A DNA stretch of 64,000 bases. Origin: an uncultured Actinomycetes bacterium (GTDB lineage Bacteria > Actinomycetota > Thermoleophilia > UBA2241). The translations under genes and the position numbers were made by a program. The notes under the pieces were generated by a model. It had not been told where the DNA came from. It did no database searches and saw only the letters and a list, made by a program, of their open reading frames with translations. Positions 16,431 through 61,956 of this stretch are shown one piece after another. The stretch covers positions 192,001 to 256,000 of the forward strand of contig CAVPVX010000002.1 of the NCBI GenBank assembly GCA_963709345.1. Reading direction: 5' to 3'. Position 1 is the first letter of the stretch; every line of letters starts with the position of its first letter.

Positions 16431-16494
16431 GTCGACCTCCTGGTCGTGTCGTCAGCTGATGGCAGGGACCGCCGGCGCCGGCGCTCACCGGCCG

Positions 16495-18150: not shown

Positions 18151-19052
18151 TCCTTCTCCTGCACAGCGTGCCCTCCGAACTCGTTGCGCAGGGCCGCGAG
18201 CACCTTGCCGCTGAACGTGTCGGGCTGGCGGGAGCGGAAGCGCGCGAAAAGGGCCGCGCTGATGGCAGGCATGGGCACGGAGTGAGCGATCGCCTGCTCG
18301 ACGGTCCAGCGTCCCTCTCCGGTATCCTCCACGTACCCCGTGATGTGCTCGAGGCCCGGGTCCTTCTTCAGAGCGCCCGCGGCGAGTTCGAGGAGCCAGC
18401 TGCGGACGACGCTGCCCTGGTTCCAGAGGTCGGCGATGGAGGCGAGGTCCAGATCCCAGTCGGTCGCCTCGAGCAGCTCGAAGCCTTCGGCGTACACCTG
18501 CATCATGCCGTACTCGATACCGTTGTGGACCATCTTGACGAAGTGGCCGGATCCGTGGCCGCCAGTGTACTCGTAGCCGTGACCGGGCGGGGCCAGGGTC
18601 TTCAGGACGGGCTCGACATGATCGAAGGCTGAGCGCTCGCCCCCGACCATGAGGCAGTACCCTACCTCAAGCCCCCACACTCCGCCGCTCGTTCCCGCGT
18701 CGAGGTAGCGGATACCTTGCACGCTCAGGGCGGCGCCGCGCTCGATGTCGTGCTGGAAGGGGGAGTTGCCCCCGTCCACGAGGATGTCTCCCTCGGCGAG
18801 CAGCGGCGCCAGCTGGTCGATCGCCGCCTGGGTCGCGTCGCCGTAAGGGAGCATCAGCCAGATCACGCGCGGCGCGGGCAGCGCCGCGACGACGCCGACG
18901 AGATCGCGGATCGGCTCGGCGCCCTCCGCCCCCAGCTCTTCGGCTTTCGCGAACGTGCGGTTCCAAACGACCACCCGATGGCCGCCGCGCAGCAGGCGCC
19001 GCGCCATGTTGCCGCCCATGCGACCCAGCCCGACCATGGCAACGTCCATCAC
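18147..19052 (-). CDS. gnd: 6-phosphogluconate dehydrogenase (decarboxylating, short type)
   Basis: GLGRMG, DGGNS, DAGTSGG, GHFVKMVHNGIEY, ALRNEFGGH. Confidence 0.95.
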   Translation of the reverse strand: MMDVAMVGLGRMGGNMARRLLRGGHRVVVWNRTFAKAEELGAEGAEPIRDLVGVVAALPAPRVIWLMLPYGDATQAAIDQLAPLLAEGDILVDGGNSPFQHDIERGAALSVQGIRYLDAGTSGGVWGLEVGYCLMVGGERSAFDHVEPVLKTLAPPGHGYEYTGGHGSGHFVKMVHNGIEYGMMQVYAEGFELLEATDWDLDLASIADLWNQGSVVRSWLLELAAGALKKDPGLEHITGYVEDTGEGRWTVEQAIAHSVPMPAISAALFARFRSRQPDTFSGKVLAALRNEFGGHAVQEKE

Positions 19053-19091
19053 GACCTCCTCGTCCGGCCGGGCCCACCCGGCGCCGCGGAC

Positions 19092-20783: not shown

Positions 20784-20784
20784 G

Positions 20785-21945
20785 TCAGCTCCCCTCTCCC
20801 TCGAGCAGCGCCCGGCGCTTCTCCTCGACGATGGCGACGTCGGCGTCGAACGCCGCGACGAAGAGGTCGACGCCTTCCCGCCGCAGCCGCGCGCCCACGT
20901 CCTCCATGTCGATGCCCAGGTGGCTCAGCTCGCGCAGCACGCGATGCGCCTCGTCCAGGTGACGATCGACGGTGGGCGCGACTGTCCCGTGGTCCTTGAA
21001 CGCCTTCCACGTGGCCTCGGGCAGCGTGTTCACGGTGTACTCGCCGATCAGCTCGTCCACGTACAGGGTGTCGGGGTACGACGGATCCTTGACGCCGGTG
21101 CTCGCCCACAGCACGCGCTGGATCTTGGCGCCCGACGCCGCGATCAGCTGCCATTCGCGGCCGTTGAGGTAGCTGCGAAAGCGCTCGTAGACGACCTTGG
21201 CGTTGGCGACGCCCGCTCGGCGCTTGAGCCCCTGGATGCGCCGCCGCTCCGCCACGTCGGCGGCGGCCTCCGCCCGCTCGTCGAGCAGCTTGTCGACGAG
21301 CACGTCCACACGCGAGACGAACAGGCTCGCGACAGACGACGTGGCGCGGATCGTGAGGTCGTGCGAGAGCCGATACTCAAGCGCCTCCAGATAGACGTCG
21401 GCGACGGCCTCGTACTGGGTCAGCGAGAAAAGCAGGGTGATGTTGATGTTCAGCCCGTCCTGCAGGCAACGGAGCACGGCGGGCACGCCTTCGCGCGTCC
21501 CGGGGATCTTGATCAGGACGTTGGGCCTGTCGACGGCGGCGAACAGGCGCTGCGCCTCGGCGACGGTCTTCGCCGTGTCGTACGCGAGATGGGGGGAGAC
21601 TTCGATGCTCACGAACCCATCCGCGCCCCCGCTCCCCAGATAGACCGGTGCCAACACGTCGCAGGCGGCGCGGACGTCGTCAATGGCGAGCCTGTCGAGG
21701 ATATCCGCGGCGTCCAGGCCCTGATGAGCCAGACTCAGGATCTCCTCGTCGTACGCGTTCCCGCCGCCGATGGCCCGCTCGAAGATCGCGGGGTTCGTGG
21801 TGACACCGCCAAGGCCGTCGCGCTCCACCATCTTCCGGAGCCCGCCGCGGGCGATGAGCGCCCGGCTGATGTAGTCGAACCAGGGGCTTTGACCCAGACG
21901 GTTCAGTTCGGCGAGCCGGCTCTCGGCAGGCGGCACGGCGATCAC
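20785..21945 (-). CDS. tal: transaldolase
   Basis: GQSPWFD, GVTTNPAIF, VSIEVSP, IKIPGT, NITLLFS, SLFVSRVD, LWASTGVK. Confidence 0.93.
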   Translation of the reverse strand: MIAVPPAESRLAELNRLGQSPWFDYISRALIARGGLRKMVERDGLGGVTTNPAIFERAIGGGNAYDEEILSLAHQGLDAADILDRLAIDDVRAACDVLAPVYLGSGGADGFVSIEVSPHLAYDTAKTVAEAQRLFAAVDRPNVLIKIPGTREGVPAVLRCLQDGLNINITLLFSLTQYEAVADVYLEALEYRLSHDLTIRATSSVASLFVSRVDVLVDKLLDERAEAAADVAERRRIQGLKRRAGVANAKVVYERFRSYLNGREWQLIAASGAKIQRVLWASTGVKDPSYPDTLYVDELIGEYTVNTLPEATWKAFKDHGTVAPTVDRHLDEAHRVLRELSHLGIDMEDVGARLRREGVDLFVAAFDADVAIVEEKRRALLEGEGS

Positions 21946-48570: not shown

Positions 48571-50196
48571 TCAGGGCTTCGCGCCGAGACAGTAGAACCA
48601 GCCGTCGCGGCAGCCGATGTAGATGCGGCCGTCCCAGATGACCGGCGTCGACTCGAAGGCGCCTTCGGCGAAGAACTGGTCGCGCTCGCTGAGGCTCACC
48701 GTCCAGTACATGCCGTCGCCGTTGGCGCTGGGGAGCGCGCCGGCGTCGCCCTTCTCGGCCGGCGCGTACTCGAGGTCGAAGAGGTGGACGCGCTGGTCGT
48801 AGCTGGCGGCCACCAGCGCGTCCTCTACGATGATCGGCGTCGAGATCGCGCCGCCGTTCCAGATCTTCGCCACCTGCACCGGCGTCTTGAGGCCGCGTTC
48901 GCGGTTCGGGCCCCGCACGGTGGCTTCGGCCATCGTGTCCTGCGACACCACGTAGAGGTACCCGTCGACGGCGCTGAAGGCGCAGAGGGCCGGGTACTGC
49001 CCGCCGGGGTTGTACTCGTCGTTGACCGCGGCCGAACCGACGATGCCGCCGTCCCAGTCCCCGATCTTGCGGTCGCCGGTCGGGAAGTACCACACGGCGG
49101 CCTCCGCCGCGGACTTCGCCGGATCGAGACACAGCATCCCGCCCTTGCCCTTGATGTACTCCTTCTCGACCGATTGCAGCAGCAGCCCGCGCTTCGTCGG
49201 CACCGGCGTCCCGTCGAGGTCCGAGCCGATGAAATAGTCCCAGACGACCTTGAGATCGGAGCGCCGGAGGCCGTACACGTGCCCGGCGCCGGAGGCGATG
49301 TACAGGTTCTCGCCGAGCGCCGAGGCCGACGACTCCAGAACAAGGTTGCGGCCGTGGCTCGCGGCGCGCTCGTCACCGAGGAGCAGTCGCTCGGCGAGGA
49401 CGACCGGCTTCTTGCCTTCCGCCCACTCCTCGGTCGCCAGCGGGTCGAGGGTGGTGAACCACCCGCTCTCGAGCCCGATGTAGAAGCGGCCGTCGTGGAA
49501 GAAGCCGCTGCCGTCGCAGTCACGGCTGTAGCAGCGCGTCTGCGGCACCGGCAGCCGCCACAACTCCTTGCCGCTCCCGAAGGTCATCGCCCGCAGCGGT
49601 GCGACGCTCTCATCGGCGAGCTTCAGCGGGTAGCCGCGGCGCGAGCCGGCGATCACGACGTACTTGTCGTCGGGGCCCGTCGGCGAGGGATTCCGGAAGA
49701 CCGACGGGCTGCTCTTGATGATGTCATCGAACTCGTACGTCCACACGACCTTGCCGGTCGTCGCGTCGATGCGCCGCAGCCGGTAGTCGTAGCCGCTCGC
49801 GATCACATAGGGCTTGCCGCCGTCGACGACGACGTTCGCCTGGCCCGTCCAGCCGCTTCCCGCCCACTTGCTGGGGGGATCGTCGTCGAGCTTGCCCGAG
49901 CTCCAGCCGCTCCCGAGCTTCACCTTCCAGAGCACGTCGAGACGCTTCGGCGCCGGTCCCAGCCCGTAGAACCGGCGCCCGTAGTTGCCGAGAAACGTGC
50001 CGACCTTGACGCCGTCTCCGGCGAGCTCCGGACGCGGCGGCGGCGAGATCGGGCCGGCCACGACCTGCGGCTGCTCGTCACCGCCGCAGCCGCAGCCGCC
50101 GCAGGCGGCGGCGCGCCAGACGACCAGCGCGAGCACGGCGACGAGGACGACGAGGGCGCCGCAGCGGCGGCGGCGCAGCTGGCACTGGCGCTGCAT
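48571..50196 (-). CDS. exported PQQ-like beta-propeller repeat protein
   Basis: N-terminal TM/signal, repeated G...W motifs (TGKVVW, GKELW), STP.I..G.IY.G..DG..YCL. Confidence 0.7.
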   Translation of the reverse strand: MQRQCQLRRRRCGALVVLVAVLALVVWRAAACGGCGCGGDEQPQVVAGPISPPPRPELAGDGVKVGTFLGNYGRRFYGLGPAPKRLDVLWKVKLGSGWSSGKLDDDPPSKWAGSGWTGQANVVVDGGKPYVIASGYDYRLRRIDATTGKVVWTYEFDDIIKSSPSVFRNPSPTGPDDKYVVIAGSRRGYPLKLADESVAPLRAMTFGSGKELWRLPVPQTRCYSRDCDGSGFFHDGRFYIGLESGWFTTLDPLATEEWAEGKKPVVLAERLLLGDERAASHGRNLVLESSASALGENLYIASGAGHVYGLRRSDLKVVWDYFIGSDLDGTPVPTKRGLLLQSVEKEYIKGKGGMLCLDPAKSAAEAAVWYFPTGDRKIGDWDGGIVGSAAVNDEYNPGGQYPALCAFSAVDGYLYVVSQDTMAEATVRGPNRERGLKTPVQVAKIWNGGAISTPIIVEDALVAASYDQRVHLFDLEYAPAEKGDAGALPSANGDGMYWTVSLSERDQFFAEGAFESTPVIWDGRIYIGCRDGWFYCLGAKP

Positions 50197-50359
50197 GGAG
50201 CGGCGGCGCGGGGGCCGCCCGTGATTTCCGGCCGTGGTCTCGATGCGGCAACGATACTACGCGTGGATGCCGGCCGCCCGCGGAGCGGATAGGATGCGGG
50301 GGCTGGCCGGCGCAGCCGCACCGGCCGCACGACGACACACCATGACCGCGGAGGCACCC

Positions 50360-51427
50360 ATGGCGACCGACCTCGACCTGCTGCGCGAGCTCTGCGCGGC
50401 CCCGGCTCCCACAGGCTTCGAAGCACCGGCCCAAGAGGTCGTCCGGCGGCGCCTCGCTCCTCTCTGTGAGCCCCAGGGTGACCCGCTCGGCAACGTCTGG
50501 GGGTCCGTGGTGGCCGATGGCGCACCCGGCGTCGTCGTCACCGCGCACAACGACCAGATCGGCCTCATCGTCACCTACGTAGACGAGCACGGCTTCGTGT
50601 CGTTCGACAAGATCGGCGGCGTCGACCCCCAGCTCATGCCCGGCCGCAATCTCGTCGTGCACGCGGCCACTGGCCCCGTCCACGGCGTCGTCGGCCGCAA
50701 GCCTTCGCACAAGATGACCAAGGAAGAGCGCGCCAAGGCTCCCGACCTCAGCGACCAGTGGCTCGACATCGGCGCCTCGACGCGTGACGAGGCGCTGGGG
50801 CTCGTCCAGATCGGTGACCCCATCACCTTTCCCGCGCACTTCCTGCCACTCGCCGGCGGTCGCTACGCCTCGCCGGCCGTGGACAACCGCGCCGGCGTGT
50901 ACGTCTGTCTGCGCGCGCTCGAGCACTACGCGAAGGCGCCGGCGGCCGCCGCCCTCACCGCCCTCACCACCGTGCACGAAGAGACGACCTTCATGGGAGC
51001 CAAGGCGATGGCGATGCGCTGGCAGCCGGACGTGATCGTGGTCGTCGACGTCGACTTCGCCAGCGACGACCCGGGGATGGACGCCAAGAAGCTCGGCGGC
51101 GAGGTCAAGCTGGGCGCCGGCCCGGTGATCCACCGCGGCGCCGGCAGCAACCTCGCCCTCGTCGATCTCGCCGTCCAGGTCGCCCAAGCCGAGGGCATCC
51201 CGGTGCAGATCAAGGCGATGCCCGGCAGCACCTCCACCGATGCCGAGGAGTTCATGGCGTCGGGCCGGGCGGCGACGCTGTCGTTCAGCATCCCCGTGCG
51301 CAACATGCACTCAGCGTTCGAGGTCTTCCAGCCGGACGATGCCGAGGCGGGCGCCCTGCTGGCGGCCGCCGTCGCGCGGCGTCTTGCCGACGGCTGGGAT
51401 CGCGAGAAGCTGGTGCCGCGCGCCTAA
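50360..51427 (+). CDS. M42-family metallopeptidase
   Basis: GFE, AHNDQIG, IGG.D, DIGA, DNRAG, VHEE, DVD, TDA, MHS. Confidence 0.85.
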   Translation: MATDLDLLRELCAAPAPTGFEAPAQEVVRRRLAPLCEPQGDPLGNVWGSVVADGAPGVVVTAHNDQIGLIVTYVDEHGFVSFDKIGGVDPQLMPGRNLVVHAATGPVHGVVGRKPSHKMTKEERAKAPDLSDQWLDIGASTRDEALGLVQIGDPITFPAHFLPLAGGRYASPAVDNRAGVYVCLRALEHYAKAPAAAALTALTTVHEETTFMGAKAMAMRWQPDVIVVVDVDFASDDPGMDAKKLGGEVKLGAGPVIHRGAGSNLALVDLAVQVAQAEGIPVQIKAMPGSTSTDAEEFMASGRAATLSFSIPVRNMHSAFEVFQPDDAEAGALLAAAVARRLADGWDREKLVPRA

Positions 51428-51514
51428 GCCCTTCGCGGCGCTCGTCGAGCAACGGGCCGCGCGCTCGTCGACCGGCGAGTCCGGCCAGGTGCGCCGGTCC
51501 ATCGCCCGCCGGCG

Positions 51515-51955
51515 CTACCGGGCAGACGCCCGGAATCCGGCGATCAGCTGCTGCTTCTGCGTGTCTGAGAGGCGGGCGGCGCTGTGGGCGAGCCTGTACT
51601 GTAGCGGGGGCATCTCGCCGTCACTCACCATCTCTGCGGCCTGAGCCATGAGCCCGCCGCCGCCGACCGCCGGCCACTCCGAGAAGTTGAGGTGGTCGCG
51701 ACCCTCTGCGACGTCCCGGTAGACGAGCCACGACGCCGGGGCGATGTTCGCGTACCAGGGCCACACCGTCTCGTTGCTGTGGCAGTCAAAGCAGGCGCCG
51801 GCGGCCAGCGCCTCGGTCTGCGGGCTGTCCCACCGCGGCTCGCCGGTCACCGGCGGGCTGGTGTGGTCGCGGCCGTACGGGACCAGCTGGATAGCGCCGA
51901 AGCCCACGACGAGGACCGCGGCGACCCACACCAGGGTCTTCTTGCGTGGCAACAT
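51515..51955 (-). CDS. heme-binding (c-type cytochrome) domain protein
   Basis: CFDCHSNET.WPWY, APASWL..DV..GR..LNFSEW, MPP..Y..H. Confidence 0.85.
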   Translation of the reverse strand: MLPRKKTLVWVAAVLVVGFGAIQLVPYGRDHTSPPVTGEPRWDSPQTEALAAGACFDCHSNETVWPWYANIAPASWLVYRDVAEGRDHLNFSEWPAVGGGGLMAQAAEMVSDGEMPPLQYRLAHSAARLSDTQKQQLIAGFRASAR

Positions 51956-51957
51956 GG

Positions 51958-52560
51958 TCAGCCTCCCGGCTCGCTGCTCCCGGCGCGCGACAGCACGCCG
52001 CCGATGAAGTCTATCTCCGCCGGCGCGACACGGCTCCAGTAGGCGTCGTTGTGGCCGCCGGCCTCGAACCCGCCCGCCGGAGGCTCCGGCAACGACTCCG
52101 CGAACGCCGTGGCGGCGGCTTGGAAGGGATCCTTCGTGCCGCAGTCGATGCGCACCGGCAGGCCGCGCAGACGCTCCACGTCCGCGAACACGCCGTGGGC
52201 CGCGTAGTCTGCGGCGCCGTCGAACGCGTCGCCGACACCGGCGTCGTGCAACTGCCAGAGCGCCGGGCTGAGCGCGCCGACGCCGCGGGAGTCAGCGGGG
52301 CGCAACTCGGCGGCGCGAAGGGCGCCGTAGCCCCCTTGGACCAGCCCATGATCGCGATCGGCCCGCCTGACCCGAAGTCGCCGCGGAGCAGCGGGATGAA
52401 CTCGTCGAGCAGCATCGCCATGGCGTCGTCGCCGGCCTCACGGCCGTGCCAGTACGTGTCGCTCGCCTGCAGTGCCGCCACGGCGAACGGCGAGACCGGC
52501 TACCGTCACGCCGCCGCCGATCAGGAACTGGCGCCGAGTGACACCAGCCTCGGGAGCGAG
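51958..52560 (-). pseudogene. Tat-exported alpha/beta-hydrolase (esterase) remnant
   Basis: RRQFL Tat motif, YWH, GWS.G, ALSPALW, DCG..DPF, GGH...YW spread over different frames. Confidence 0.6.
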
Positions 52561-52583
52561 CAGCGCGCCGGTCCGGTCCGGGC

Positions 52584-53724
52584 TCATTCGCAGGCGGGCG
52601 CCGCCGTCCGTGCCGCCGGACCGGCCGCCAGCGGCCCGCTCTGCGGGGAGCGCAGCGCCGCGGCCAGCTGGCGCGCCATCTCCGGCTGCCACTTGGCGCG
52701 CCCGTGCGCCAGCAGGTGGAAGAGGTCGGCGAAGTCGTCGTCGTGCAGGTCCACCGCCCGCTCGATATGCAGGTACGGGACCCCGTAACGGGAGGCGAGC
52801 TCGCCCGCCCGGGCCCGGTACGCCGGCACGACGCCGGCCCAGTCGGGGCCGGCGGCCGAGGAGTTCAGGGGCTGGTCGTACAGCACGACGGCGAAGCCGC
52901 GCTCACGAGCCAGCTTCAGGACCTCCTCGAGCACGGCGAAGTTGTAGTCCGCGTACTTGCGGTACAGCTGCACGTCCTTCTCCAGCACGTAGAGGACGTT
53001 GCGCCGCTTGCCGAGGGGGAGGTGGCCCTTCGCCCCCGCCGGGTAGTAGTGCTTCTCGTACTCGAGCCGGAACCCCCACGGCACGCCGCTCGACGGGCGC
53101 TCGCGCAGGTACGAGCCGAGGAAGCTGAAGACGCCGGGCAACTCCCCGGTCGCCGGCGCTTCCTTGCCGTACAGCCGCGGCGAGAGCTCCGCCAGCCGCG
53201 GGCTTCGAAGGAGGAGCGGCTGGCCGGACAGCAGCCTCTGGTCACGCTCCGGCGTGCCGGTGACCCGGATGGGGGCGAGCCCGAGAGCCACGACCGCCGG
53301 CCCGGGCGGGAGATTGTCGATGAGCGTCAGCGACATGGCCATGCTCTGCTGGTGCGCGGCGAGACTCACCACCCGCAGCGGCTCGCCCGAGCCGCGCGAG
53401 ACCGCCGCCGCGAGAGTCTCCTCACTGATGATGCACTCCATCGTCCCCGAGCCGCCGAAGAGGTAGATCGTGCGCGTCTCCGGCGGATCCTCGCGGAGCT
53501 CCGCGATGCGGTACGAGAGGTGCAGGTAGTCGTCGTGGGTGATGCGCAGGAGGCGTCCCTTGTCGACCGCGGTTATGCCGCCGCCGAGCACCGCGGACTG
53601 GAAGGCGAGCAGGACGCCGACGGCGAGGGCCGCCGCCGCAACGAGCACCAGCGGGTTGCGCTGGCGAAAGCCACGGCCGAACCAGCGCCGCCTTCGCGTC
53701 TTCTGTGCTGCGGGTGGGACTCAC
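52584..53724 (-). CDS. SGNH/DltD-like protein, paralog 4 (possible frameshift near the start)
   Basis: RGF..RNPLVL N-terminus like its paralogs, YLFGGSG, FADLFHL; the RBS-preceded GTG at 53724 is out of frame by 1. Confidence 0.7.
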
Positions 53725-53755
53725 CCTTCGCTCCTCGTCTGCAGGCGCTATCGTC

Positions 53756-55003
53756 TCACCACGTATGACCAGTAAGCCACGCGAGCGGCAGACGCACAAC
53801 GTAGTACAGCACCTTCAGCGCCTGACGGAAGTCCGGCGTCGCCACGAAGGCGTACCCCAGGGCGACGTACAGGAAGGTCACGGGATAGCCGAGCCAGCGG
53901 ATGAACGGCTCGAACGCGGCAGCCCGCGGCAGCCCCGCCTTCTTACGCGCCTTGCGGCGCTTCTTCTTCCAGCGCTGGAAGGCGGCGACGACCACGAGGC
54001 CGGTGCCGTGATACAGACCCCACACCGTCCAGTTGAGGTCGACGTAGTGCCAGAGGCCCATGGTCAGCATGCTCGCGTACAGACCGAGCCAGGGCTTGCG
54101 GGTGAGCCCGAAGACCGGGAAGTAGACGTTGTTGCGCACCCAGCTGGAGAGGGAGATGTGCCAGCTGTGCCAGAAGTCGCTGAGGTTCTTCTGCAGGAAC
54201 GGCAGGTGGAAGTTCTCCATGATCCTGAAGCCGAACAGCGACGAGAAGCCGATGGCGAGGTCGGTGTAGGCGGAGAGGTCGAAGTACGCGCGCACGAAGA
54301 CGATGATGCAGAAGGCGAGCGGCCACCACGTCCCCACCTCGCCCGGGTTGAAATCGGTGCGCCCGATGGTCGTCGTGATCTTGCCGAAGAACATGACGAA
54401 GAGGAAGTCGACGACGAAGACCTTCTTGAAGTACCCGAGCGCGATGCGCCTGAGCCCCGTGTAGAAGAGCTGCCGGTCGAACTCGAAGCTGCGCTTGCCG
54501 TAGAACCCCTGGTACGTCTCGAGCGGGCCGGCCGGGAAGGTCGGGATGAACATCATGAACGCGCCGAGGCGCAGCAGCGAGTTGTCCTGAATCACGCCGC
54601 GCATGCAGTCGAAGACGTACTGCAGCAGGCGGAAGACGAAGTAGCTGATGCCGAGAGGCATCAGCAGATGAGAGACGACCCAGTCGCCCTCTCCCCACAC
54701 GGCGATCACCCCGCGCTGGCCGTACTTGCCGATCGCAAGGGTGATGAGAGCGATGAGGATCGCGATGAGCACGGCGCGGCTCCCGCGCAGGCGCTCGTGC
54801 CGATGCAACTCGACGAGCTGGTGGACGACCAGCACCAGCCCCACGGCCACGGCCGCGAATATCGGGTGGAGGACCGCCAGGATGCCGACGCTGAGGAGCA
54901 GCGTGAAGAGCAGGCGGTGCTTGTCGTTGCGCAGCGCCAGCCAGAAGACGACCAGGGCCACCGCGACGACCGGGATCAGGTACAACGTGAAGTAGATCTT
55001 CAC
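53756..55003 (-). CDS. MBOAT O-acyltransferase (DltB/AlgI-like)
   Basis: PLGISYF.FR, AGP, YFD.SAY.D.AIG, ENF..PF, FW..WHISLSSW.R..VY.P, MGLWH catalytic His. Confidence 0.92.
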   Translation of the reverse strand: MKIYFTLYLIPVVAVALVVFWLALRNDKHRLLFTLLLSVGILAVLHPIFAAVAVGLVLVVHQLVELHRHERLRGSRAVLIAILIALITLAIGKYGQRGVIAVWGEGDWVVSHLLMPLGISYFVFRLLQYVFDCMRGVIQDNSLLRLGAFMMFIPTFPAGPLETYQGFYGKRSFEFDRQLFYTGLRRIALGYFKKVFVVDFLFVMFFGKITTTIGRTDFNPGEVGTWWPLAFCIIVFVRAYFDLSAYTDLAIGFSSLFGFRIMENFHLPFLQKNLSDFWHSWHISLSSWVRNNVYFPVFGLTRKPWLGLYASMLTMGLWHYVDLNWTVWGLYHGTGLVVVAAFQRWKKKRRKARKKAGLPRAAAFEPFIRWLGYPVTFLYVALGYAFVATPDFRQALKVLYYVVRLPLAWLTGHTW

Positions 55004-56070
55004 CCGCTCTTCCCCTCCGTTCCCTCATCGTTCATGAGCCTCATGAGCGCGGCCGCCAGCGCACTCTGCCAGATGACGCGCCCCGGTTCCACCAGATGCG
55101 AGAGATCCTGGAAGTACGCGTCGGGGATCGCGACCGTCTCGTTCAGGTCGAGATACGGCGCGTCGTACTCTCGCGCGAGCCGCGCCACCGGCGCGCGATA
55201 CGCCCGCTGCGCGCGCTCGAAGCGGCCGCGGACGACGTCGGTGTTGAGCGGCAACTCGAGAAGGACGATGCGCACACCGCGATCGCGGGCCCGCCGGAGC
55301 AACTCCTCGAGCATGGCGAGATTGCTCGCGCGATTCTCCTTGAAGACCGGGTACCGGCGCGTGTTCCACACGCCGACGAGGCGCTCCTTGTAGCGCGTCG
55401 AGCGCGCCGAGTCCTCCGAGTAGCGATGCAGCTCGTACGGCGTGCTCGGCGGCTCGCCCTCGAGCAGCGCCGCACCGTGCGTTCGCGTCCAGTCGGTGAT
55501 ATACGACCAGATCCCCGGGAGGATCGTGTACTGATACCTCTGCAGGTCCCACTCGGCGGCGACGAACCGGCGCAGAGCGGGACTGCGCAGCAGAAACTCG
55601 CGTCCCTCCACCTGCTGCGCATTCTGCTCCCGGGTGGGAGTGAAACGTCCCAGATTGACGCCGACGAGCAGCCAGGCAGGCGTGTCGGGGACGGCCTCGA
55701 TCACGGCCATGGTCTGCGCGAAGTTCTGGTTCATGGAACCCAGGTCGTACGCGGCGACGCGAGGCCCGCCGAGCTCCTCTATCTCGGCGGCGAGACTCTC
55801 GCCGCTCACGATGGACTCGCGCGCGCTCGAGCCGCCGAGCAGGTACACGGCGGGCGTGCCCGGCGGGTCCCGCCGTGCCCTTCCCACCATCCATGAGACG
55901 TAGGTGAACGAATCCCTGGGATTCCGCAGGCAGCGGTCCAGCGGGACGCTGGTCCAGGACCCGCTCGTGAACAGCCATTGGAATCCGAGCAGCGCCGGGA
56001 CGAGCAGGATGGCGGCGACCAGCAGCACCAGGGGGCTGCGATTGAGGAAGCCGCGACGGAAGCTGCCCAT
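55000..56070 (-). CDS. SGNH/DltD-like protein, paralog 3
   Basis: N-terminal TM, YLLGGSSARE, FQDLSHL. Confidence 0.75.
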   Translation of the reverse strand: MGSFRRGFLNRSPLVLLVAAILLVPALLGFQWLFTSGSWTSVPLDRCLRNPRDSFTYVSWMVGRARRDPPGTPAVYLLGGSSARESIVSGESLAAEIEELGGPRVAAYDLGSMNQNFAQTMAVIEAVPDTPAWLLVGVNLGRFTPTREQNAQQVEGREFLLRSPALRRFVAAEWDLQRYQYTILPGIWSYITDWTRTHGAALLEGEPPSTPYELHRYSEDSARSTRYKERLVGVWNTRRYPVFKENRASNLAMLEELLRRARDRGVRIVLLELPLNTDVVRGRFERAQRAYRAPVARLAREYDAPYLDLNETVAIPDAYFQDLSHLVEPGRVIWQSALAAALMRLMNDEGTEGKSG

Positions 56071-57140
56071 CAGAGGGCCTCCCGCAGGGTCCCGTCGTCG
56101 TACAGGCGCGCGAGCTGCCGGGCGAGCTCGGCCTGCCAGACGACGCGCCCGTCGGGAAGGAGGTGCGAGAGGTCGAGGAAGTCCTCGCTCGGGATGTCGA
56201 CCTGCTCGTTGAAGTCCAGGTACGGCACCCCGTACTCGGCGGCGATCTCTCGCGTCGGCGTGCGGTAGGCGGTGAACGCCTCATCGAACGAGTCACCGAT
56301 GACCTCACGGTTGTAGGGCAGCTCCAGGAGCACCACGTCGAGCCCCTTCCGCTGCCCTTCAAGCACCAGGTCCCCGAGCATCGCCACGTTGAAGTCGAGG
56401 ACCCGCCGGAACGCCGGGTAGTACCGGCTCAGCCACTTCTGCACCAGGGCATCCTTGCGCTCCGATGACAGTGCTTTGCGGCCGTCGAACGCGTGCGGCC
56501 TGTACGGCCGCGGGCTCAGCCGGCCCTTGAACAGAAGGTCGTTCTCGCGCTGCTGTGCGTACGACGCCAGCGCCGAGAAGATGCCCGGGAGGATGGTGTA
56601 CGAGCGCCGGTGCTCGCCGGAGCGGGCGACCACCCAGTCCCGCAGCGAGTCGCTCTTGAGCAGGAGCTCCCGGCCGACGACCTGGTTGTAGTTGCTCTTG
56701 GGACTCGTGGTGAAGCGGCCGAGGTTCACGCCGATGAGGACGGTCGTCGGCGTGTCCGGCAGGTTGTCGACGATGGCCCAGCTCTGGGCGTAGCGCTGCA
56801 TCCGCGAACTGAGGTTGCGGGCGGCGATGGTGGGGCCTCCCGCGGCGCGCACGTCGCCGGCGAGGGAGGGACCGCTGACAATGGCCTCCCGGCCGCTGGA
56901 GCCGCCCAGCAGCGTCACGAGCGGCCGCTCCGGCGGCCGGCGCTTGAGCTCGCCGACCGTCCACGACACGTACATGTAGTCGTCCGTGGCGTTGCGCATC
57001 CAGCGCTGCACCGGCACGGCGCTCCAGGCGCCGCTGGTGAAGAACGCCTGGATGCCGAGGAGCGCCGGCACCAGCAGCGCGAGCGCCACGACGAGCACGA
57101 GGGGGCTCCGGTTGCCCAGCCCGCGACAGAAGCTTCTCAC
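56070..57140 (-). CDS. SGNH/DltD-like protein, paralog 2
   Basis: N-terminal TM, LLGGSSGRE, FLDLSHL. Confidence 0.75.
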   Translation of the reverse strand: MRSFCRGLGNRSPLVLVVALALLVPALLGIQAFFTSGAWSAVPVQRWMRNATDDYMYVSWTVGELKRRPPERPLVTLLGGSSGREAIVSGPSLAGDVRAAGGPTIAARNLSSRMQRYAQSWAIVDNLPDTPTTVLIGVNLGRFTTSPKSNYNQVVGRELLLKSDSLRDWVVARSGEHRRSYTILPGIFSALASYAQQRENDLLFKGRLSPRPYRPHAFDGRKALSSERKDALVQKWLSRYYPAFRRVLDFNVAMLGDLVLEGQRKGLDVVLLELPYNREVIGDSFDEAFTAYRTPTREIAAEYGVPYLDFNEQVDIPSEDFLDLSHLLPDGRVVWQAELARQLARLYDDGTLREAL

Positions 57141-58210
57141 TGCGGGACGCCGCCGTGCCCGGACGTCTCGCCCATGATCTCCACGACTTCCCGCGCGAGG
57201 CGGCGCTGCCAGACCGTGCGGCCCGACTCGACCAGGTGCGAGAGGTCGTGGAAGTCGCGGCTCGCGATGTCGAGCTCCTCGTTGAAGTCGACGTAGGGTA
57301 CCTCGTACTCGTCGGCCAGAGCCTCGACCGGCTCCCGGTACTCCTCGAGGGCGTAATCGAACCGATCGCCGACCACCTCGCGGTTCAGCGGGAGCTCGAC
57401 GAGCACGACATGCAGGCCGCGCTGCTCCGCGCGCACAAGGAGCTGCTCGAGCATGTCGACGTGAAAGGCCAAGTTACGCCTGAACCTGGGGTACCGCCTC
57501 GTGTTCCACACCTTGACCATGCGCTCCTTCTCGGCCACGGTGTGGTTGCCCTTCAGGTTGTACCGGTGCTGGCCGTAGGTCCTCCGCGGTATCCGGCCCA
57601 GGAGGAGCTCGCCGCCCTGCTCCTGGACGTGACTCGTGAGCTGGGAGAACACGCCCGGCAGGATCGTCGTCGTGTACTTGTACTTGCCGTACGTCTCCGC
57701 CACGTACTGCTGCAGAAAGCGACTCGGCAGCAGGAGCTCGCGGCCCTCCGACTGCTTGAAGCTGGCGCCACGGTCGGAGGTGAACCGCCCGAGCCCCAAA
57801 CCGACGATCAGATAGGTCGGCGTCGCCGGCACGTTGTCGGCCACCGCGAGACTCTGCGCGAAGTTCTGGTTCATGGACCCGAGATCCCACGCGGCGACGT
57901 CGGGACCGCCCGCCTCCCTGACGTCGGCGGCCAGGCTCGGGCCGCTGACCACGGCCTCTCGCGCCGCGGACCCGCCGAGCAGGTACACCGACGGCTTGTC
58001 CGGCGGATCGCGCTTGACCTTGCCGACGACCCAGGAAACGTACACGTAGTCGTCGCTGGACTTGCGCAGCCAGTACTCGAGCGGCACGGCCGTCCAGCGG
58101 CCGCTCGAGAAGCACTCCTCGACGGAGTAGAGCACGGGGACGAGAAACAGCAGCGCCGCAAGAAGGACCAGCGGGCTGCGATTGAAGAGACCCCGTCTGA
58201 AGCTGCTCAC
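57137..58210 (-). CDS. SGNH/DltD-like protein, paralog 1
   Basis: N-terminal TM, YLLGGSAARE, FHDLSHL. Confidence 0.75.
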   Translation of the reverse strand: MSSFRRGLFNRSPLVLLAALLFLVPVLYSVEECFSSGRWTAVPLEYWLRKSSDDYVYVSWVVGKVKRDPPDKPSVYLLGGSAAREAVVSGPSLAADVREAGGPDVAAWDLGSMNQNFAQSLAVADNVPATPTYLIVGLGLGRFTSDRGASFKQSEGRELLLPSRFLQQYVAETYGKYKYTTTILPGVFSQLTSHVQEQGGELLLGRIPRRTYGQHRYNLKGNHTVAEKERMVKVWNTRRYPRFRRNLAFHVDMLEQLLVRAEQRGLHVVLVELPLNREVVGDRFDYALEEYREPVEALADEYEVPYVDFNEELDIASRDFHDLSHLVESGRTVWQRRLAREVVEIMGETSGHGGVPQ

Positions 58211-59745
58211 CCCAGCTCCTCCGCGAGCAACGCGCGGAGCTCGGCACGGATGGCCTTGCCCGACCCCGTGCGAGGGATAGCCGGGACGGCGATCACGCGA
58301 CTCGGCAGCGATGCCGGCGGCAGGACGCCGCGAAGCTCGCGCAGCAGCCTCGAGGCCTTGAAGCCCTCGGGCTCGAGCGGGACGACGAAGGCCACGGGGA
58401 CGTGCCCGAGTATCTCGTCGGGCGCCGCCAGCACGGCGACGTCGGCGAAGCGGCCCAGACCCTGCAGCGCCTGCTGCACGTGCACGATGCTGACCTTCTC
58501 GCCGCCGCGCTTGATGATGTCGTCCTTGCGCCCGGCGATCCAGACGGCGCCACTCTCGTCGACGTGCCCGAAGTCGCCGGTCCTCAGCCCGTGCCCGGTG
58601 AGCGCAGCCGCGGTGATCTCGGGCTCGTCCAGATACCCCTGCATCAGCAGCGAGCCGGTGACGAAGAGCTCGCCGGTCTCGCCAGGCGCGGCCTCGGCGC
58701 CGTCCCCGCGCCGTGCCACGACGCGCATGTCGCCGATCGGCCGACCGACGGAGCCGACGCGCACGTCCAGGTCGGCCGGCGGCAGGATGCAGAGCCGGCC
58801 GCTCACCTCAGTGAGCCCGTACATGTTGAAGAGGCCGACGCCCGGGAGCACGCGGCGGAGCTTCTCGATGACGGGCAGCGGCAGGTGATCGCCGCTGCTC
58901 ACCCAGAAGCGGAACCCGTGCTCCCGCGGCTCGTCGAGCGGCTCCACGACGCGCACGAGGTGCGCCGGTGCGCCGCCGAAGCCGGTGCAGCCTTGCGCCT
59001 CCATCTCGTCGAGGAGCGCGGCGCCGAAGAAGAAGCCGAGCTGCCCGGCCACACCGCCGCCGTTCGCCAGCAGCGTGAGAAAGTGACAGATGCCGCTGGT
59101 GAAGTACGGCGGCGTGTTGATGAAGATGCGGTCGTCGGCCCGCAGCCCCAGCGTGAGCGCCACGTGACCGGCGTTGCTCGAGACCGCCCGGAGCGTCTGG
59201 CACACGCCTTTTGGCAGGCCGGTGGTGCCCGACGTGAACATGATCATCGCGAGTTCGTCCTCGCGCACCGCCTCGAGATCCGCCGGCGCGGCAGCCGGAC
59301 ACCCCGCCTCGCCACCGGGAGCGCGGACGCCCTCCACAAGCCCGTCGGCGCCGGCTACGACGACCAACTGAGCGGGCCCATTCGAGGTTATGGGGCAGGC
59401 GTCGTCGTCGGCGACCACGATCACGTCCGGCCGCGACTTCTCGATCAGCCAGTCGACGTCGGCTTGGGGAAGGCTCGTGTTCAGCGGCACCACGACCTGC
59501 CCCGCAAGCCAGGCGCCGAGCATGCCGATGAAGAAGTGGTCGTACTCCTCGAGCACGAGCGCGACGCGCGCCCCGCGCCCGCCCGCGGCCGCGCGCAGCG
59601 AAGTCGCGACCAGCGTGGCCCGCCGCACGGCCTCACCGTAGGTGTACGTGCGACCCCGAGTGCGGAGCAACGTATCGCCGGGCCGCTCGGCGGCCCAGCG
59701 GCGCAGACGCGCTACGGCATCGGTCATCAAGGAGGCTTGGGTCAT
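58207..59745 (-). CDS. ANL-superfamily adenylate-forming enzyme
   Basis: FTSGTTGLPKG, YGLTE, TGD, GRKDD.IKRGG, PRT.SGK. Confidence 0.9.
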   Translation of the reverse strand: MTQASLMTDAVARLRRWAAERPGDTLLRTRGRTYTYGEAVRRATLVATSLRAAAGGRGARVALVLEEYDHFFIGMLGAWLAGQVVVPLNTSLPQADVDWLIEKSRPDVIVVADDDACPITSNGPAQLVVVAGADGLVEGVRAPGGEAGCPAAAPADLEAVREDELAMIMFTSGTTGLPKGVCQTLRAVSSNAGHVALTLGLRADDRIFINTPPYFTSGICHFLTLLANGGGVAGQLGFFFGAALLDEMEAQGCTGFGGAPAHLVRVVEPLDEPREHGFRFWVSSGDHLPLPVIEKLRRVLPGVGLFNMYGLTEVSGRLCILPPADLDVRVGSVGRPIGDMRVVARRGDGAEAAPGETGELFVTGSLLMQGYLDEPEITAAALTGHGLRTGDFGHVDESGAVWIAGRKDDIIKRGGEKVSIVHVQQALQGLGRFADVAVLAAPDEILGHVPVAFVVPLEPEGFKASRLLRELRGVLPPASLPSRVIAVPAIPRTGSGKAIRAELRALLAEELG

Positions 59746-59762
59746 GCGCGGAGGTCCCGCCG

Positions 59763-60107
59763 TCAGAAGCCGACGTACCGGAACTCGGTCAGCTTGTTGC
59801 CCACGAGAACGGCGATCGTGATCGCCAGGAAGAGGAGGAACCAGAGCAGGGTCTGCAGACTCAGCCCGAGGCCGTAGAAGACCCAGCGCGTGCGTGGCTC
59901 GGCCGGTTCGTCGGCCGGCTCCTCGTCCCGGGCTTCCATTGCGTTCGGCTCGTCTGAGTCGGCGTCGTGAGCGCCGTCGGGAGCGGCGGGAACGTCGCCC
60001 TCGGCGCCGGGCTCGCGACCCTCGAGGTCGGAGGCGCCATCCGCGGCAGGAGGCGCGCCGTTCGCGACGACCTCGCCGGGAGCCTGTTCCTCGCTCGGCT
60101 CAGGCAT
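59763..60107 (-). CDS. DltX-like acyl-shuttle membrane protein with acidic N-terminal extension
   Basis: Single TM helix followed by C-terminal FRYVGF, resembling DltX FIYxEF. Confidence 0.7.
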   Translation of the reverse strand: MPEPSEEQAPGEVVANGAPPAADGASDLEGREPGAEGDVPAAPDGAHDADSDEPNAMEARDEEPADEPAEPRTRWVFYGLGLSLQTLLWFLLFLAITIAVLVGNKLTEFRYVGF

Positions 60108-60348
60108 CGCCCGCCTTCTTGCGCGCCACGTAAGCTAGCATGTGGCTGACCGTGTCGAGATTCTCGTAGATGATATCCATGGGCTTCACCTTGATCGCGA
60201 ACGTCTCTTCGAGAAACGCGATCAGCGCCGTGAGGTTCATCGAATCGAGAAGCTGGTCGCGGAACAGAGACGTATCCGCGGTCACTTCTTCGTCGTCGAG
60301 TTCGGCCTCTTCGCGGATGAACTCCAGGATGGTGTCGGCGTCGGTCAT
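60100..60348 (-). CDS. acyl carrier protein (DltC-like)
   Basis: LF...LLDSM phosphopantetheine Ser, FLEE.F.I.V, ENLDTV. Confidence 0.88.
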   Translation of the reverse strand: MTDADTILEFIREEAELDDEEVTADTSLFRDQLLDSMNLTALIAFLEETFAIKVKPMDIIYENLDTVSHMLAYVARKKAGDA

Positions 60349-60387
60349 GTGGGGTCCTTCACTGGTCGGGAGGCTGAGGGACCGCCT

Positions 60388-61074
60388 TCAGGTGCGCGTC
60401 CCCTGGCTGTACGAGAACCTCATGGGGCTGACGAAGCCGGTCGCCTCGACCCCGGCCTTGAACACCTTGGCCAGGGTGAACACGCGCTCCGCGGTCTGGA
60501 AGCCCTGCTCGAGGCCCCACTCGTCGCTGCGGATGTGGCCGCGGCCGCCGGCCCAGCCGTAAGCGCCGAACTGGCAGGTGCCGTCGCCGTTGCCGACGAC
60601 GAGGCAGCCGTTGCGCACGAAGGGCAGCCACGTGGCGATGATCGCCGTCTCGGCGCCGCCGGAGCGCCGCCCGGCGGTGGCCATGACGCCGACCGGCTTG
60701 TCGGCAAGCTTGAAGTCCTGGTGGCGCGGCACGCGCGTGCGCATGATGAACTTCGTGAACAGGTCCGAGGGAAGGCCGAAGTAGACCGGGGTGGCGACGA
60801 GCAGGCCGTCGGCGGCGATCATCTTCTCGAGCACGCCCTGGACGTCGTCCTCCTCGGCACGCACGCAGGGGATGAACTCCCCGGTGTCCTTCCTCTGGCC
60901 GCAGACGTTGCAGGCCTTGCAGGGCTCGACGTGGAGCGCGCGCAGGTGGACCACCTCGTGCTCGGCCTCGCCGGGGTAGGTGGCGTCGAGCTTCTCGAAC
61001 GCCGTCTCGAGCATGATCCCGCTGTTGCTGTTGTCTCGGGGGCTGCAGTCGAGCCCTATCAGTCGCACGGTCAT
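60388..61074 (-). CDS. flavodoxin-like iron-sulfur flavoprotein
   Basis: SPR..NS, PC.ACNVC....C, DD, ATPVYFG, RSGGAE. Confidence 0.8.
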   Translation of the reverse strand: MTVRLIGLDCSPRDNSNSGIMLETAFEKLDATYPGEAEHEVVHLRALHVEPCKACNVCGQRKDTGEFIPCVRAEEDDVQGVLEKMIAADGLLVATPVYFGLPSDLFTKFIMRTRVPRHQDFKLADKPVGVMATAGRRSGGAETAIIATWLPFVRNGCLVVGNGDGTCQFGAYGWAGGRGHIRSDEWGLEQGFQTAERVFTLAKVFKAGVEATGFVSPMRFSYSQGTRT

Positions 61075-61270
61075 GCGTCGCGCTCCTCTCCGTGCACGTC
61101 CGCCCCGTCTGAGTTGAGGCGAATGGGATGGTCAGGCCCGCAGTCGCGTACGGGAGAGTGATTCTACCAGACGAACGCGGCCCTCGCGCCCGCCCGCGAG
61201 GTCGTGATGGCCCAGCGCTCCAAGGTGGCGGGCGAGGGAACGCCCAGGACCCGTAGGCTGGAGCGAGGGA

Positions 61271-61357
61271 TGGTGCCGGAGGTGGGATTTGAACCCACAC
61301 GCCCTTTCGGGCACCCGATTTTGAGTCGAGCGCGTCTACCAGTTCCGCCACACCGGC
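61271..61357 (-). tRNA. tRNA-Leu(CAA)
   Basis: GCCGGTGTGGCGGAACTGGTAGACGCG-CTCGA CTCAAAA TCGGG-long variable arm-GGTTCAAATCC-CTCCGGCACCA. Confidence 0.95.
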
Positions 61358-61488
61358 ACGGTGAGCCGTGCGGGGATTCTATCCTGCATGCTCGCCCGGC
61401 GCGACGACCGCCGGGCCGAAGGTCGGGTGAGGAGACGGCGTGCCTGACATAGGATGAGCACGTCCGGTCGGCGACGTAGGAGGGTTTC

Positions 61489-61956
61489 ATGCGCAGGGCT
61501 CTGTTCGTCTTGGCCGCGATCGCGATCGCGGCGCTCGTCATCGTCGGATGCGGCGGTTCCGAAGAGCCCGCGGCGAACGAGACGCCCGCCGCCCAGTCCC
61601 CGGCCGGCGACACCTGGACCACTGTCACCACGCTGCACTCGGACGACCCGCAGGAGATCAAGGGGCTCGACATCAGCGAACCGTTCACCGCCTCCGGCGA
61701 CGTCCGCTTCGTGGTCGATATGCCGGACGCCGGCGACGTGGACGGCGTGCTCGCCTTCGTGATGGCAGAAGACCAGGCCGGCGACGCCGCGTCCATCATG
61801 GAGGCCTTACGGGCCCTCCCGGACGCGCAGCAGCTGACGCTCATGCCGTCGCTCGGGGGCGAGGCTGTCGTGCCCGGCCTCGACGGCAGCTACGTGCTGG
61901 TCAGCTCGGTACCCAACGAGAAAGCCTGGTCCGTGGAGATCCAGACGCAGCAGTGA
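61489..61956 (+). CDS. hypothetical lipoprotein
   Basis: AGGAGG RBS, lipobox IVGC. Confidence 0.7.
   Translation: MRRALFVLAAIAIAALVIVGCGGSEEPAANETPAAQSPAGDTWTTVTTLHSDDPQEIKGLDISEPFTASGDVRFVVDMPDAGDVDGVLAFVMAEDQAGDAASIMEALRALPDAQQLTLMPSLGGEAVVPGLDGSYVLVSSVPNEKAWSVEIQTQQ

Follow-up and report, generated by a model that had tools for sequence, protein, structure and literature searches.

The Dlt pathway of Firmicutes is the described system closest to the locus analysed here. In this pathway the C-terminal FXYXXF motif of the microprotein DltX acts as an acyl shuttle: the MBOAT protein DltB acylates its tyrosine, which offloads the acyl group to DltD (PMC12148441), a protein with one N-terminal transmembrane (TM) helix that binds DltX (PMC13653941). 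In the part of PMC12148441 available to us, other MBOAT pathways are stated to lack a DltX-like microprotein and a carrier protein. The mechanism of transmembrane acyl transfer by MBOAT and SGNH proteins was worked out only recently. Here, we analysed a window of 64,000 nucleotides (the whole stretch under study, from contig CAVPVX010000002.1) of an uncultured soil and water actinobacterium of the Thermoleophilia lineage (genome 3.1 Mb, ~70% G+C, 98% complete). Its minus strand carries, at 51.5-61.1 kb, an operon encoding a flavoprotein, an acyl carrier protein (ACP), a microprotein called X, an adenylate-forming ligase, a DltB-like MBOAT and four SGNH paralogs (S1 to S4).

We conclude that this operon probably encodes a carrier-protein-dependent, Dlt-type pathway for acylating an acceptor on the membrane's outer face. 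Judged from its genes, the system would work like Dlt but is not a dlt operon. In the pathway that we infer, its individual reactions, acyl group and acceptor included, the ligase would adenylate a carboxylic acid without an alpha-amino group in the cytoplasm and load it onto ACP. The MBOAT would then move the acyl group through the membrane onto Tyr111 of X, and X would pass it to Ser81 of a membrane-anchored SGNH protein, which would esterify an extracytoplasmic acceptor; production or tailoring of the acyl group may be the task of the flavoprotein. An SGNH array in two classes with a common anchor would take the place of the single DltD, and it most likely serves several acceptor sites or polymers. 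The first-pass annotation of this DNA had proposed an uncharacterised system of this type, and gene content, motifs, fold, synteny and distribution, all of them observed, bear it out: a carrier protein and a ligase are encoded together with a DltB-like MBOAT without a tail, an invariant shuttle tail and membrane-anchored, DltD-like SGNH proteins. No description of the system was found in the literature searched (Dlt-like, MBOAT and SGNH systems, acyl shuttles, and actinobacterial DltB and DltD), which did not cover the original 2023 Dlt mechanism paper; a match to a characterised pathway, which the annotation had named as decisive against its proposal, was likewise not found there.

Gene content and recurrence of the operon

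The eight genes listed in the first-pass annotation at 52584..60348 (ACP, a DltX-like peptide, an adenylating enzyme, three SGNH genes, the MBOAT and a fourth SGNH gene) are all present at these coordinates with the shared SGNH motifs, and this observation is therefore confirmed. The operon extends beyond them on both sides. The accompanying account of the Dlt mechanism, in which DltA loads DltC and a single DltD receives the acyl group from DltX, also agrees with the available part of PMC12148441. The genes of the unit are as follows.

60388..61074, minus strand: FMN_red-family flavoprotein (PF03358, E 6.2e-21), iron-sulfur-flavoprotein-like with the motif CxxCxxCx11C; first gene of the unit
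60100..60348, minus strand: ACP in the role of DltC (PP-binding, E 3.7e-10)
59763..60107, minus strand: microprotein X, 114 aa, with one TM helix, the C-terminus LTEFRYVGF and Tyr111
58207..59745, minus strand: adenylate-forming ligase (PF00501, E 3.8e-63; PF13193), the presumed ACP loader
57137..58210, minus strand: SGNH paralog S1, upstream class, with Ser81, Asp322 and His325 and a Gly at position 139
56070..57140, minus strand: SGNH paralog S2, upstream class, with its own orthogroup in the tree
55000..56070, minus strand: SGNH paralog S3, upstream class, the paralog that was modelled and co-folded
53756..55003, minus strand: DltB-like MBOAT, 415 aa (PF03062, E 4.8e-14), ending in WLTGHTW
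52584..53724 (52584-53648 in the list of open reading frames, ORFs), minus strand: SGNH paralog S4, downstream class, with a GTG start at 53724-53722, frameshifted
51958..52587, minus strand: remnant of a PF00756-type esterase with a twin-arginine (Tat) signal; its ATG overlaps the S4 stop (ATGA)
51515..51955, minus strand: membrane-anchored haem-binding-domain protein with a CFDCH motif (PF14376, E 1.1e-34)

According to the coordinates, ACP and X overlap by 8 nt, the pairs ligase/S1, S1/S2 and S3/MBOAT by 4 nt each and S2/S3 by 1 nt, with spacings of 17 nt between X and the ligase and 31 nt between the MBOAT and S4; the flavoprotein gene lies 39 nt upstream of the ACP gene. A scan of 51400-61500 for promoters and terminators yielded 0 promoter-like and 2 terminator-like sites, no excess over shuffled sequences. 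Sequencing runs compared with the window gave no strong match (best word share 0.20), and no RNA run was among the matches.

A cluster search in relatives was one of the checks proposed with the first-pass annotation. Using the MBOAT as query, 68 actinobacterial loci (L010-L077, MBOAT 54-97% identical) were found, across which the order ACP-X-ligase-(SGNH)-MBOAT-(SGNH) recurs, headed by the flavoprotein gene. X follows the ACP gene in 55 of 58 loci. The flavoprotein gene lies upstream of ACP in 54 of the 56 related loci with enough flank, remains part of the cluster at L036, L070 and L071 despite their rearranged gene order, and keeps its Cys motif in 56 of 57 tblastn hits; on this comparative evidence the iron-sulfur (Fe-S)/flavin mononucleotide (FMN) flavoprotein is assigned to the operon unit. 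At the other end, the esterase pieces were matched in 23 of 70 loci (L010-L079), i.e. about one third, and the haem-binding-domain gene, which starts 2 nt past the esterase stop, in 15 of 70; whether the latter belongs to the unit is uncertain.

The distribution of the SGNH family is narrow. Its profile (E <=1e-20) matched 82 of 89 genomes of the window's GTDB family, including 29 of the 32 high-quality genomes, and all 11 genera, whereas of 401 genomes sampled evenly across the phylum, 4 had matches (E <=1e-8): the window's own genome, one of its genus, and two weak partial matches in another family. By this profile count, the system appears to fill one Thermoleophilia family and to be nearly absent elsewhere in the phylum sample. 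The two remaining loci, L078 and L079, carry proteobacterial MBOATs (34-35% identity) and represent another kind of locus. At L079 (3591-8355, from a gammaproteobacterial metagenome-assembled genome, MAG) a Dlt-like set comprises a 609-aa ligase, two proteins with TM anchors (305 and 295 aa) and an MBOAT of 379 aa, which shares 35% identity with that of the window; no ORF ending in FxYxxF was seen there.

Proposed shuttle peptide, MBOAT and acyl supply

X combines a variable acidic N-terminus and a single TM helix with a motif at its extreme C-terminus that fits the FxYxxF shuttle motif of DltX. Among 61 tblastn hits from related loci the tail reads FRYVGF in 57 and FRYVRF in 3, followed each time by a stop, and one hit is a spurious match inside an ACP gene. 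The DltX-like peptide that had been read from the DNA letters is thus upheld, with FRYV[GR]F at the end of 60 of 61 hits. From its sequence, X has the defining feature of DltX, a membrane microprotein with a C-terminal FxYxxF, but falls outside the Pfam DltX family. A language-model search with X listed, at 0.87, an Atlas cluster with PF12459 in 31% of its members, which we treat as a lead only.

The MBOAT matches TIGR04091 (dltB) with E 6e-46 and 157 bits against an equivalog cut-off of 375, and its only PDB matches at E <=0.01 are DltB structures (6bug, 2.4e-28; 8jem, 3.2e-28). Its MGLWH aligns with MGFWH of DltB, which contains the catalytic His. By these matches it is DltB-like, though not a DltB equivalog. 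It has no fused FxYxxF tail. The other three MBOATs of the same genome (471-517 aa), which serve as an internal control, each end in a fused motif of this kind (FIYFGF, FLYFKF and FLYVQF), so that four MBOAT-based acylation systems seem to operate in this small genome. Their genes are located at L081 3377-4930 and 6122-7561 and at L082 2805-4220 (contigs C4 and C1), and each of the two L081 genes is followed by a gene of 360-405 aa.

The ACP scores below the DltC equivalog cut-offs (NF003464, 30.9 bits versus 68; TIGR01688, 18.7 versus 52.35), and 59 of 62 tblastn hits keep its serine motif LLDSM, in the forms LLDSMNL, LLDSMSL or LLDSMGL. For the ligase, the NCBIfam models with the highest scores, none of which reach their cut-off, are of the fatty-acyl-CoA ligase type, and DltA models are absent from its best 25 rows. 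Its PDB matches rank FadD5 (1.8e-47), FadD13 (6.6e-45) and an adenylation domain (A-domain) of LgrA (2.3e-44) ahead of DltA (1.6e-28). In the A-domains of nonribosomal peptide synthetases (NRPS) the Asp of the FD motif binds the alpha-amino group of the substrate. In both alignments with LgrA A-domains a Thr of the ligase (PPYFTSG) replaces this Asp (equivalent to Asp235); PPYFTSG is kept in 60 of 64 hits, and the lysine of PRTGSGK is kept as well. As far as its sequence tells, the ligase is not DltA-like, since it lacks the amino-binding Asp and its best matches are fatty-acyl ligases. The Thr at the amino-binding position together with the likeness to fatty-acyl ligases points to a carboxylic acid without an alpha-amino group as the probable substrate. 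On the strength of its synteny the flavoprotein may act in the synthesis or tailoring of the acyl group, and its conservation hints at an acyl-group chemistry beyond that of the known systems.

These results bear on what "dlt-like" can mean. Ordinary D-alanylation of teichoic acid by a true dlt operon in an actinobacterium would account for gene roles that match one for one and for an MBOAT nearest to DltB; we give it very little credence, because the ligase carries Thr at the amino-binding Asp and is closer to FadD5 than to DltA (1.8e-47 versus 1.6e-28), because the DltB and DltC models stay below cut-off and the DltD and DltX models find nothing, and because Dlt has neither a flavoprotein gene nor an SGNH array. 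In addition, no gene of the TagF type (PF04464) was found in the 98% complete genome. The label dlt-like in the first-pass annotation is not supported in the sense of D-alanine chemistry, given the ligase without the amino-binding Asp and the genome without a TagF-type gene.

Another reading separates the two halves of the operon and assigns ligase, ACP and flavoprotein to a small-molecule pathway (secondary metabolite or lipid) that adjoins an acyl-CoA-using MBOAT/SGNH system for polymer acetylation. Stand-alone pairs of ligase and ACP are common in natural-product clusters, and the ligase is equally like NRPS A-domains (LgrA, 2.3e-44). We nevertheless consider this very improbable in view of the tight gene coupling from ACP to MBOAT (overlaps of 1-8 nt), the gene order kept across loci with MBOATs 54-97% identical, the MBOAT without a fused tail, the free shuttle gene between the ACP and ligase genes, and a vicinity without other biosynthetic genes.

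The SGNH array and its predicted docking

S2, S3 and S4 are 50, 52 and 32% identical to S1, and the alignment agrees with the first-pass annotation that all four paralogs keep the GGS motif (Ser81) and the DxxH motif (D322-x-x-H325). Across the family members from the loci, Ser81, Asp322 and His325 are kept without exception (126 of 126). An N-terminal motif, F-x-R-G-F/L-R-x-R-x-P-L-V-L, is kept in all groups and is more similar than the rest of the proteins (S3 versus S4: 13 of 22 identical positions versus 32% overall). Matches of the four proteins to Pfam Lipase_GDSL_2 all stay below the gathering score, so that no Pfam model reached its cut-off for this family and the assignment to SGNH is based on the modelled fold instead of on Pfam.

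An AlphaFold2 model of S3 (52 sequences) reached a pLDDT of 90.6 and a pTM of 0.87. The first-pass annotation had staked its proposal on an SGNH fold of the paralogs; the S3 model has this fold, and the top Foldseek match is DltD of E. faecalis (6o93, E 9.6e-6), with further DltD entries 6pfx, 3bma and 7dxm among the matches. With VIA-align, S3 aligns with 50 SGNH entries at Z 10-13.8. DltD is aligned over 263 residues (6pfx_B, Z 13.2, root-mean-square deviation (rmsd) 4.8; 7dxm, Z 12.9, rmsd 5.0), compared with ~150-220 residues for SGNH entries other than DltD and 183 for PatB (7tjb, Z 11.7). In terms of the model, DltD is therefore the most extensive structural match of S3. Comparisons with DltD and PatB had been proposed with the first-pass annotation; they gave no match to DltD by sequence, and by structure DltD over 263 and PatB over 183 residues.

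By sequence the family stands apart. Its profile retrieved 1821 of 1.84 billion cluster representatives at E <=0.001 and 222 at E <=1e-30; of 20 members sampled from this library, 15 had no Pfam hit, 3 had sub-threshold Lipase_GDSL_2 matches and 2 had matches only to fused partner domains. One distant member (P0165, 766 aa) is fused to a pectate-lyase-like beta-helix and another (P0193, 569 aa) to RCC1 repeats. The beta-helix fusion is a faint hint at a polysaccharide acceptor.

A tree of the 126 members separates a downstream class (S4 type, after the MBOAT; 47-row core, SH-like approximate likelihood-ratio test (SH-aLRT) 100) from an upstream class located between ligase and MBOAT, in which the S2 orthogroup has 21 rows (SH-aLRT 97) and the S3 orthogroup 26 rows (SH-aLRT 100); these values come from a quick search with SH-aLRT only, a midpoint root and several long branches flagged. 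The two classes thus appear to be old and retained. They also differ in the active site, at position 139, which we take to be the probable block III residue by its place after the model strand 132-138: 72 of 78 upstream-type rows have Asn there and 41 of 47 downstream-type rows have Ala, and in the window S1 has Gly and S4 Ala.

Copy number varies from 0 to 5 per locus. Counted as full-length copies upstream plus downstream in 60 entries (59 loci and the window), the combinations were 2+1 in 20, 1+1 in 19, 1+0 in 9, 0+1 in 6, 2+0 in 3 and 3+1 only in the window, and 2 entries had one copy on the opposite strand; frameshifted copies and contig ends lower all of these counts. At L080 (G355:C1:1533000-1551000), from a 1.8-Mb genome of the same genus in 2 contigs, the genes run flavoprotein-ACP-X-ligase-SGNH-MBOAT-SGNH-SGNH-SGNH-S4, i.e. 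five SGNH genes, one before and four after the MBOAT, with three inserted after rather than before it. In the window's genome a full-length orphan copy lies beside NUDIX and dUTPase genes (C2:23941-24990; L008 9924-11036), and an 810-aa ORF without a Pfam hit ends in a partial, split match to the family (L009 9542-11974, contig C4).

The two classes could instead work in series, one taking the acyl group from X and the other modifying the acceptor, with the extra upstream copies as specialisations of one step. This relay is unlikely in our judgement, although the deep split of the tree, the 40 of 60 entries in which full-length copies flank the MBOAT on both sides and the class-specific difference at position 139 (Asn in 72/78 upstream, Ala in 41/47 downstream) are consistent with it, and the partly available PMC4148444 describes "separate and distinct roles" of AlgJ and AlgX in alginate acetylation as a precedent. 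Both classes, however, keep the anchor predicted to dock on X, which suits equal access to the shuttle, and 12 of 60 entries have only upstream-type and 6 of 60 only downstream-type copies, counts that are blurred by contig ends and frameshifts.

That some of the paralogs are editing esterases, which remove acyl groups, or inactive regulators, instead of transferases, is quite improbable. Most SGNH structural neighbours of S3 are esterases, S1 and S4 of the window have Gly and Ala in place of the block III Asn, and Dlt systems use accessory esterases, namely FmtA (PMC12505958) and DltE (PMC13653941), as described in the available parts of these sources. The triad is nevertheless invariant in 126 of 126 members, all paralogs keep the docking anchor, and relatives already have, after S4, a separate gene for an exported PF00756 esterase.

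Returning to an array of transferases served by X, we co-folded the MBOAT, residues 68-114 of X and S3, with S3 as the scored partner. The complex scored 0.68 (three runs: 0.73, 0.54 and 0.68), the best of three controls 0.04; at least 93% of the contacts are common to the runs, with a partner pLDDT of at least 82. The mark applied is reached by 116 of 157 solved complexes and by 2 of 215 mismatched pairs and is a rough guide here, where own alignments and three chains were used. The confident interface comprises S3 1-27, i.e. the shared anchor, and 184-196 on one side and X 74-103 together with MBOAT 177-188 and 204 on the other, and the S3 anchor is placed on the helix of X. Docking is thus a prediction, in which the SGNH proteins would bind X and the MBOAT through the shared N-terminal anchor. 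The claim of the first-pass annotation that one shuttle feeds several transferases is borne out in part: docking of S3 is predicted (0.68 versus 0.04) through an anchor common to all paralogs, but the co-fold is limited to S3 and gives no confident placement of the X tail in the S3 active site.

The shared N-terminal anchor, which had also been pointed out from the DNA letters, holds for all four paralogs with one qualification. In S4 the anchor RGFRQRNPLVL is in frame with the body of the protein but upstream of the listed start, and no start codon precedes it in that frame; the GTG at 53724-53722, preceded by GAGGAG, sits in a frame other than that of the S4 body, from which an extra C cuts it off. 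The window reads CCC at 53716-53718, whereas L010 (S4 98% identical) and L027 read CC, and one contig each from the metagenome runs X2, X3 and X5, out of four runs compared, is also one base shorter at 53716-53720. S4 orthologs begin 15-20 codons ahead of the anchor. The absence of the extra C from five relatives and the starts of the orthologs therefore indicate a frameshift at the third codon of S4 in this assembly. The neighbouring esterase gene is broken relative to L010 by a gap of ~330 nt and a 1-nt gap in the DNA alignment, leaving three reading-frame pieces, and an intact version (353 aa, PF00756, E 2.9e-10) is present in L011 at 10311-11372. Single-base indels relative to close relatives were thus seen in two neighbouring genes, at 53716-53718 and at ~52335, and many related MAG loci likewise give split tblastn matches. 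Together, the indels and the split matches in relatives may point to homopolymer errors of long-read assemblies rather than gene decay.

Surroundings, standing of the pathway and comparison with known systems

The unit is bounded by the following two features.

61271-61357: tRNA-Leu, upstream border of the unit
50234-51427, plus strand: convergent M42 peptidase gene, ending the unit downstream

Two minus-strand ORFs at the borders were rejected as conserved flanks: 50078-51310 is an antisense artefact over the plus-strand M42 peptidase gene and 61164-61844 one over the tRNA-Leu. Translations of such antisense ORFs still yield seemingly conserved tblastn matches in relatives, a trap at 70% G+C. 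About 50 kb around the operon hold housekeeping genes (pentose-phosphate, transhydrogenase, helicase and transport genes), with no polymer-synthesis gene and no clue to the acceptor among them. A pentose-phosphate block lies at 15681-21945 of the window, whose start (295-1652) carries ornithine-degradation genes encoding the OrtA subunit of AKP thiolase and 2,4-diaminopentanoate dehydrogenase.

Several points weigh against the Dlt-type pathway proposed here. The pathway is read from the genes and models of an uncultured MAG, and no acceptor polymer can be named, with a housekeeping neighbourhood and no TagF-type gene. In whole-genome searches the Pfam models for DltX (PF12459) and DltD (PF04914) did not detect X and matched nothing in the operon, respectively, and the SGNH-family profile found no solved structure among PDB sequences (one chance match, E 0.39). 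The Foldseek TM-scores of S3 to DltD are low (0.40 and 0.37), and by VIA-align the top entry is a sialic acid esterase (Z 13.8, rmsd 3.7, 186 residues aligned), which ties with DltD. The co-fold covers S3 alone of the four paralogs, and its passing score may partly reflect likeness to Dlt complexes. Residues 104-114 of X lie outside the confident contacts, and the predicted docking therefore stops short of delivery to Ser81. Some loci, e.g. L065 and L066, have no SGNH gene beside the MBOAT. Finally, the frameshift in S4 and the broken esterase may mean either that this copy of the operon is decaying or that the assembly contains indel errors.

A bolder version of the proposed pathway is tentative. 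In this version one MBOAT and one free Tyr-shuttle would form a multi-outlet machine, present across the lineage, serving two to five interchangeable, anchor-docking SGNH proteins, which would place a single acyl group other than an amino acid, possibly tailored by the flavoprotein, onto several envelope acceptors. If true, this would be the first Dlt-type pathway, with free shuttle and carrier, of a different acyl chemistry outside D-alanylation, and a natural test bed for the choice of a shuttle among transferases. More generally, the operon would represent a second, independent free-shuttle pathway, with a ligase of other specificity, a variable number of transferases and one docking anchor. 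It makes testable the pairing of shuttle and transferase, the Dlt-type carriage of an acyl group other than D-alanine and the decoration of the Thermoleophilia envelope; a search aimed at envelope polymers of Thermoleophilia found no literature on them.

Of the known systems outside the Dlt pathway, the exosortase-A-associated acyl ligases (TIGR03098) resemble the operon in the ligase alone. This family accompanies a carrier protein in exopolysaccharide loci. TIGR03098 is the second-best NCBIfam row of the operon ligase, but its 223.7 bits are far below the cut-off of 592, and the window has no exosortase context. FmtA of S. aureus and DltE of L. plantarum are comparable by role only, as far as the available parts of the sources describe them: in relatives of the window the last SGNH gene is coupled to a gene for an exported esterase, whereas the esterase of the operon is a PF00756 alpha/beta hydrolase with a Tat signal, belongs to another family and is broken in the window.

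The likeness to Dlt of Firmicutes is more extensive. Both systems comprise a ligase, a carrier, a tail-less MBOAT, a free FxYxxF microprotein and TM-anchored SGNH proteins; the only solved relatives of the MBOAT are DltB structures, DltD is the most extensive fold match of S3, and the predicted docking of the SGNH anchor on X parallels the binding of DltD to DltX (PMC12148441, PMC13653941, as available in part). The operon differs from Dlt in a ligase that is not DltA-like, with Thr for the amino-binding Asp, in an X and SGNH proteins undetected by Pfam DltX and DltD, and in an MBOAT and an ACP below the equivalog cut-offs. Further differences are the gene order, the added Fe-S/FMN flavoprotein gene, two SGNH classes with 0-5 copies per locus versus one DltD, the long, variable acidic N-terminus of X, and the host, a Thermoleophilia lineage in which a TagF-type gene was not found.

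With PatA/PatB, AlgI/AlgJ/AlgX and WssH/WssI the operon shares the same logic of MBOAT, Tyr-shuttle and SGNH protein, as given in the available part of PMC12148441. PatB is a fold neighbour of S3, and the alginate system also has two SGNH-like proteins. Systems of the PatA/AlgI type, however, use acyl-CoA, work without carrier or ligase and have FxYxxF fused to the MBOAT, on two additional helices at its C-terminus. The operon lacks the features of this type: its MBOAT is tail-less, its shuttle is provided in trans, and it encodes a carrier protein and a ligase of its own.

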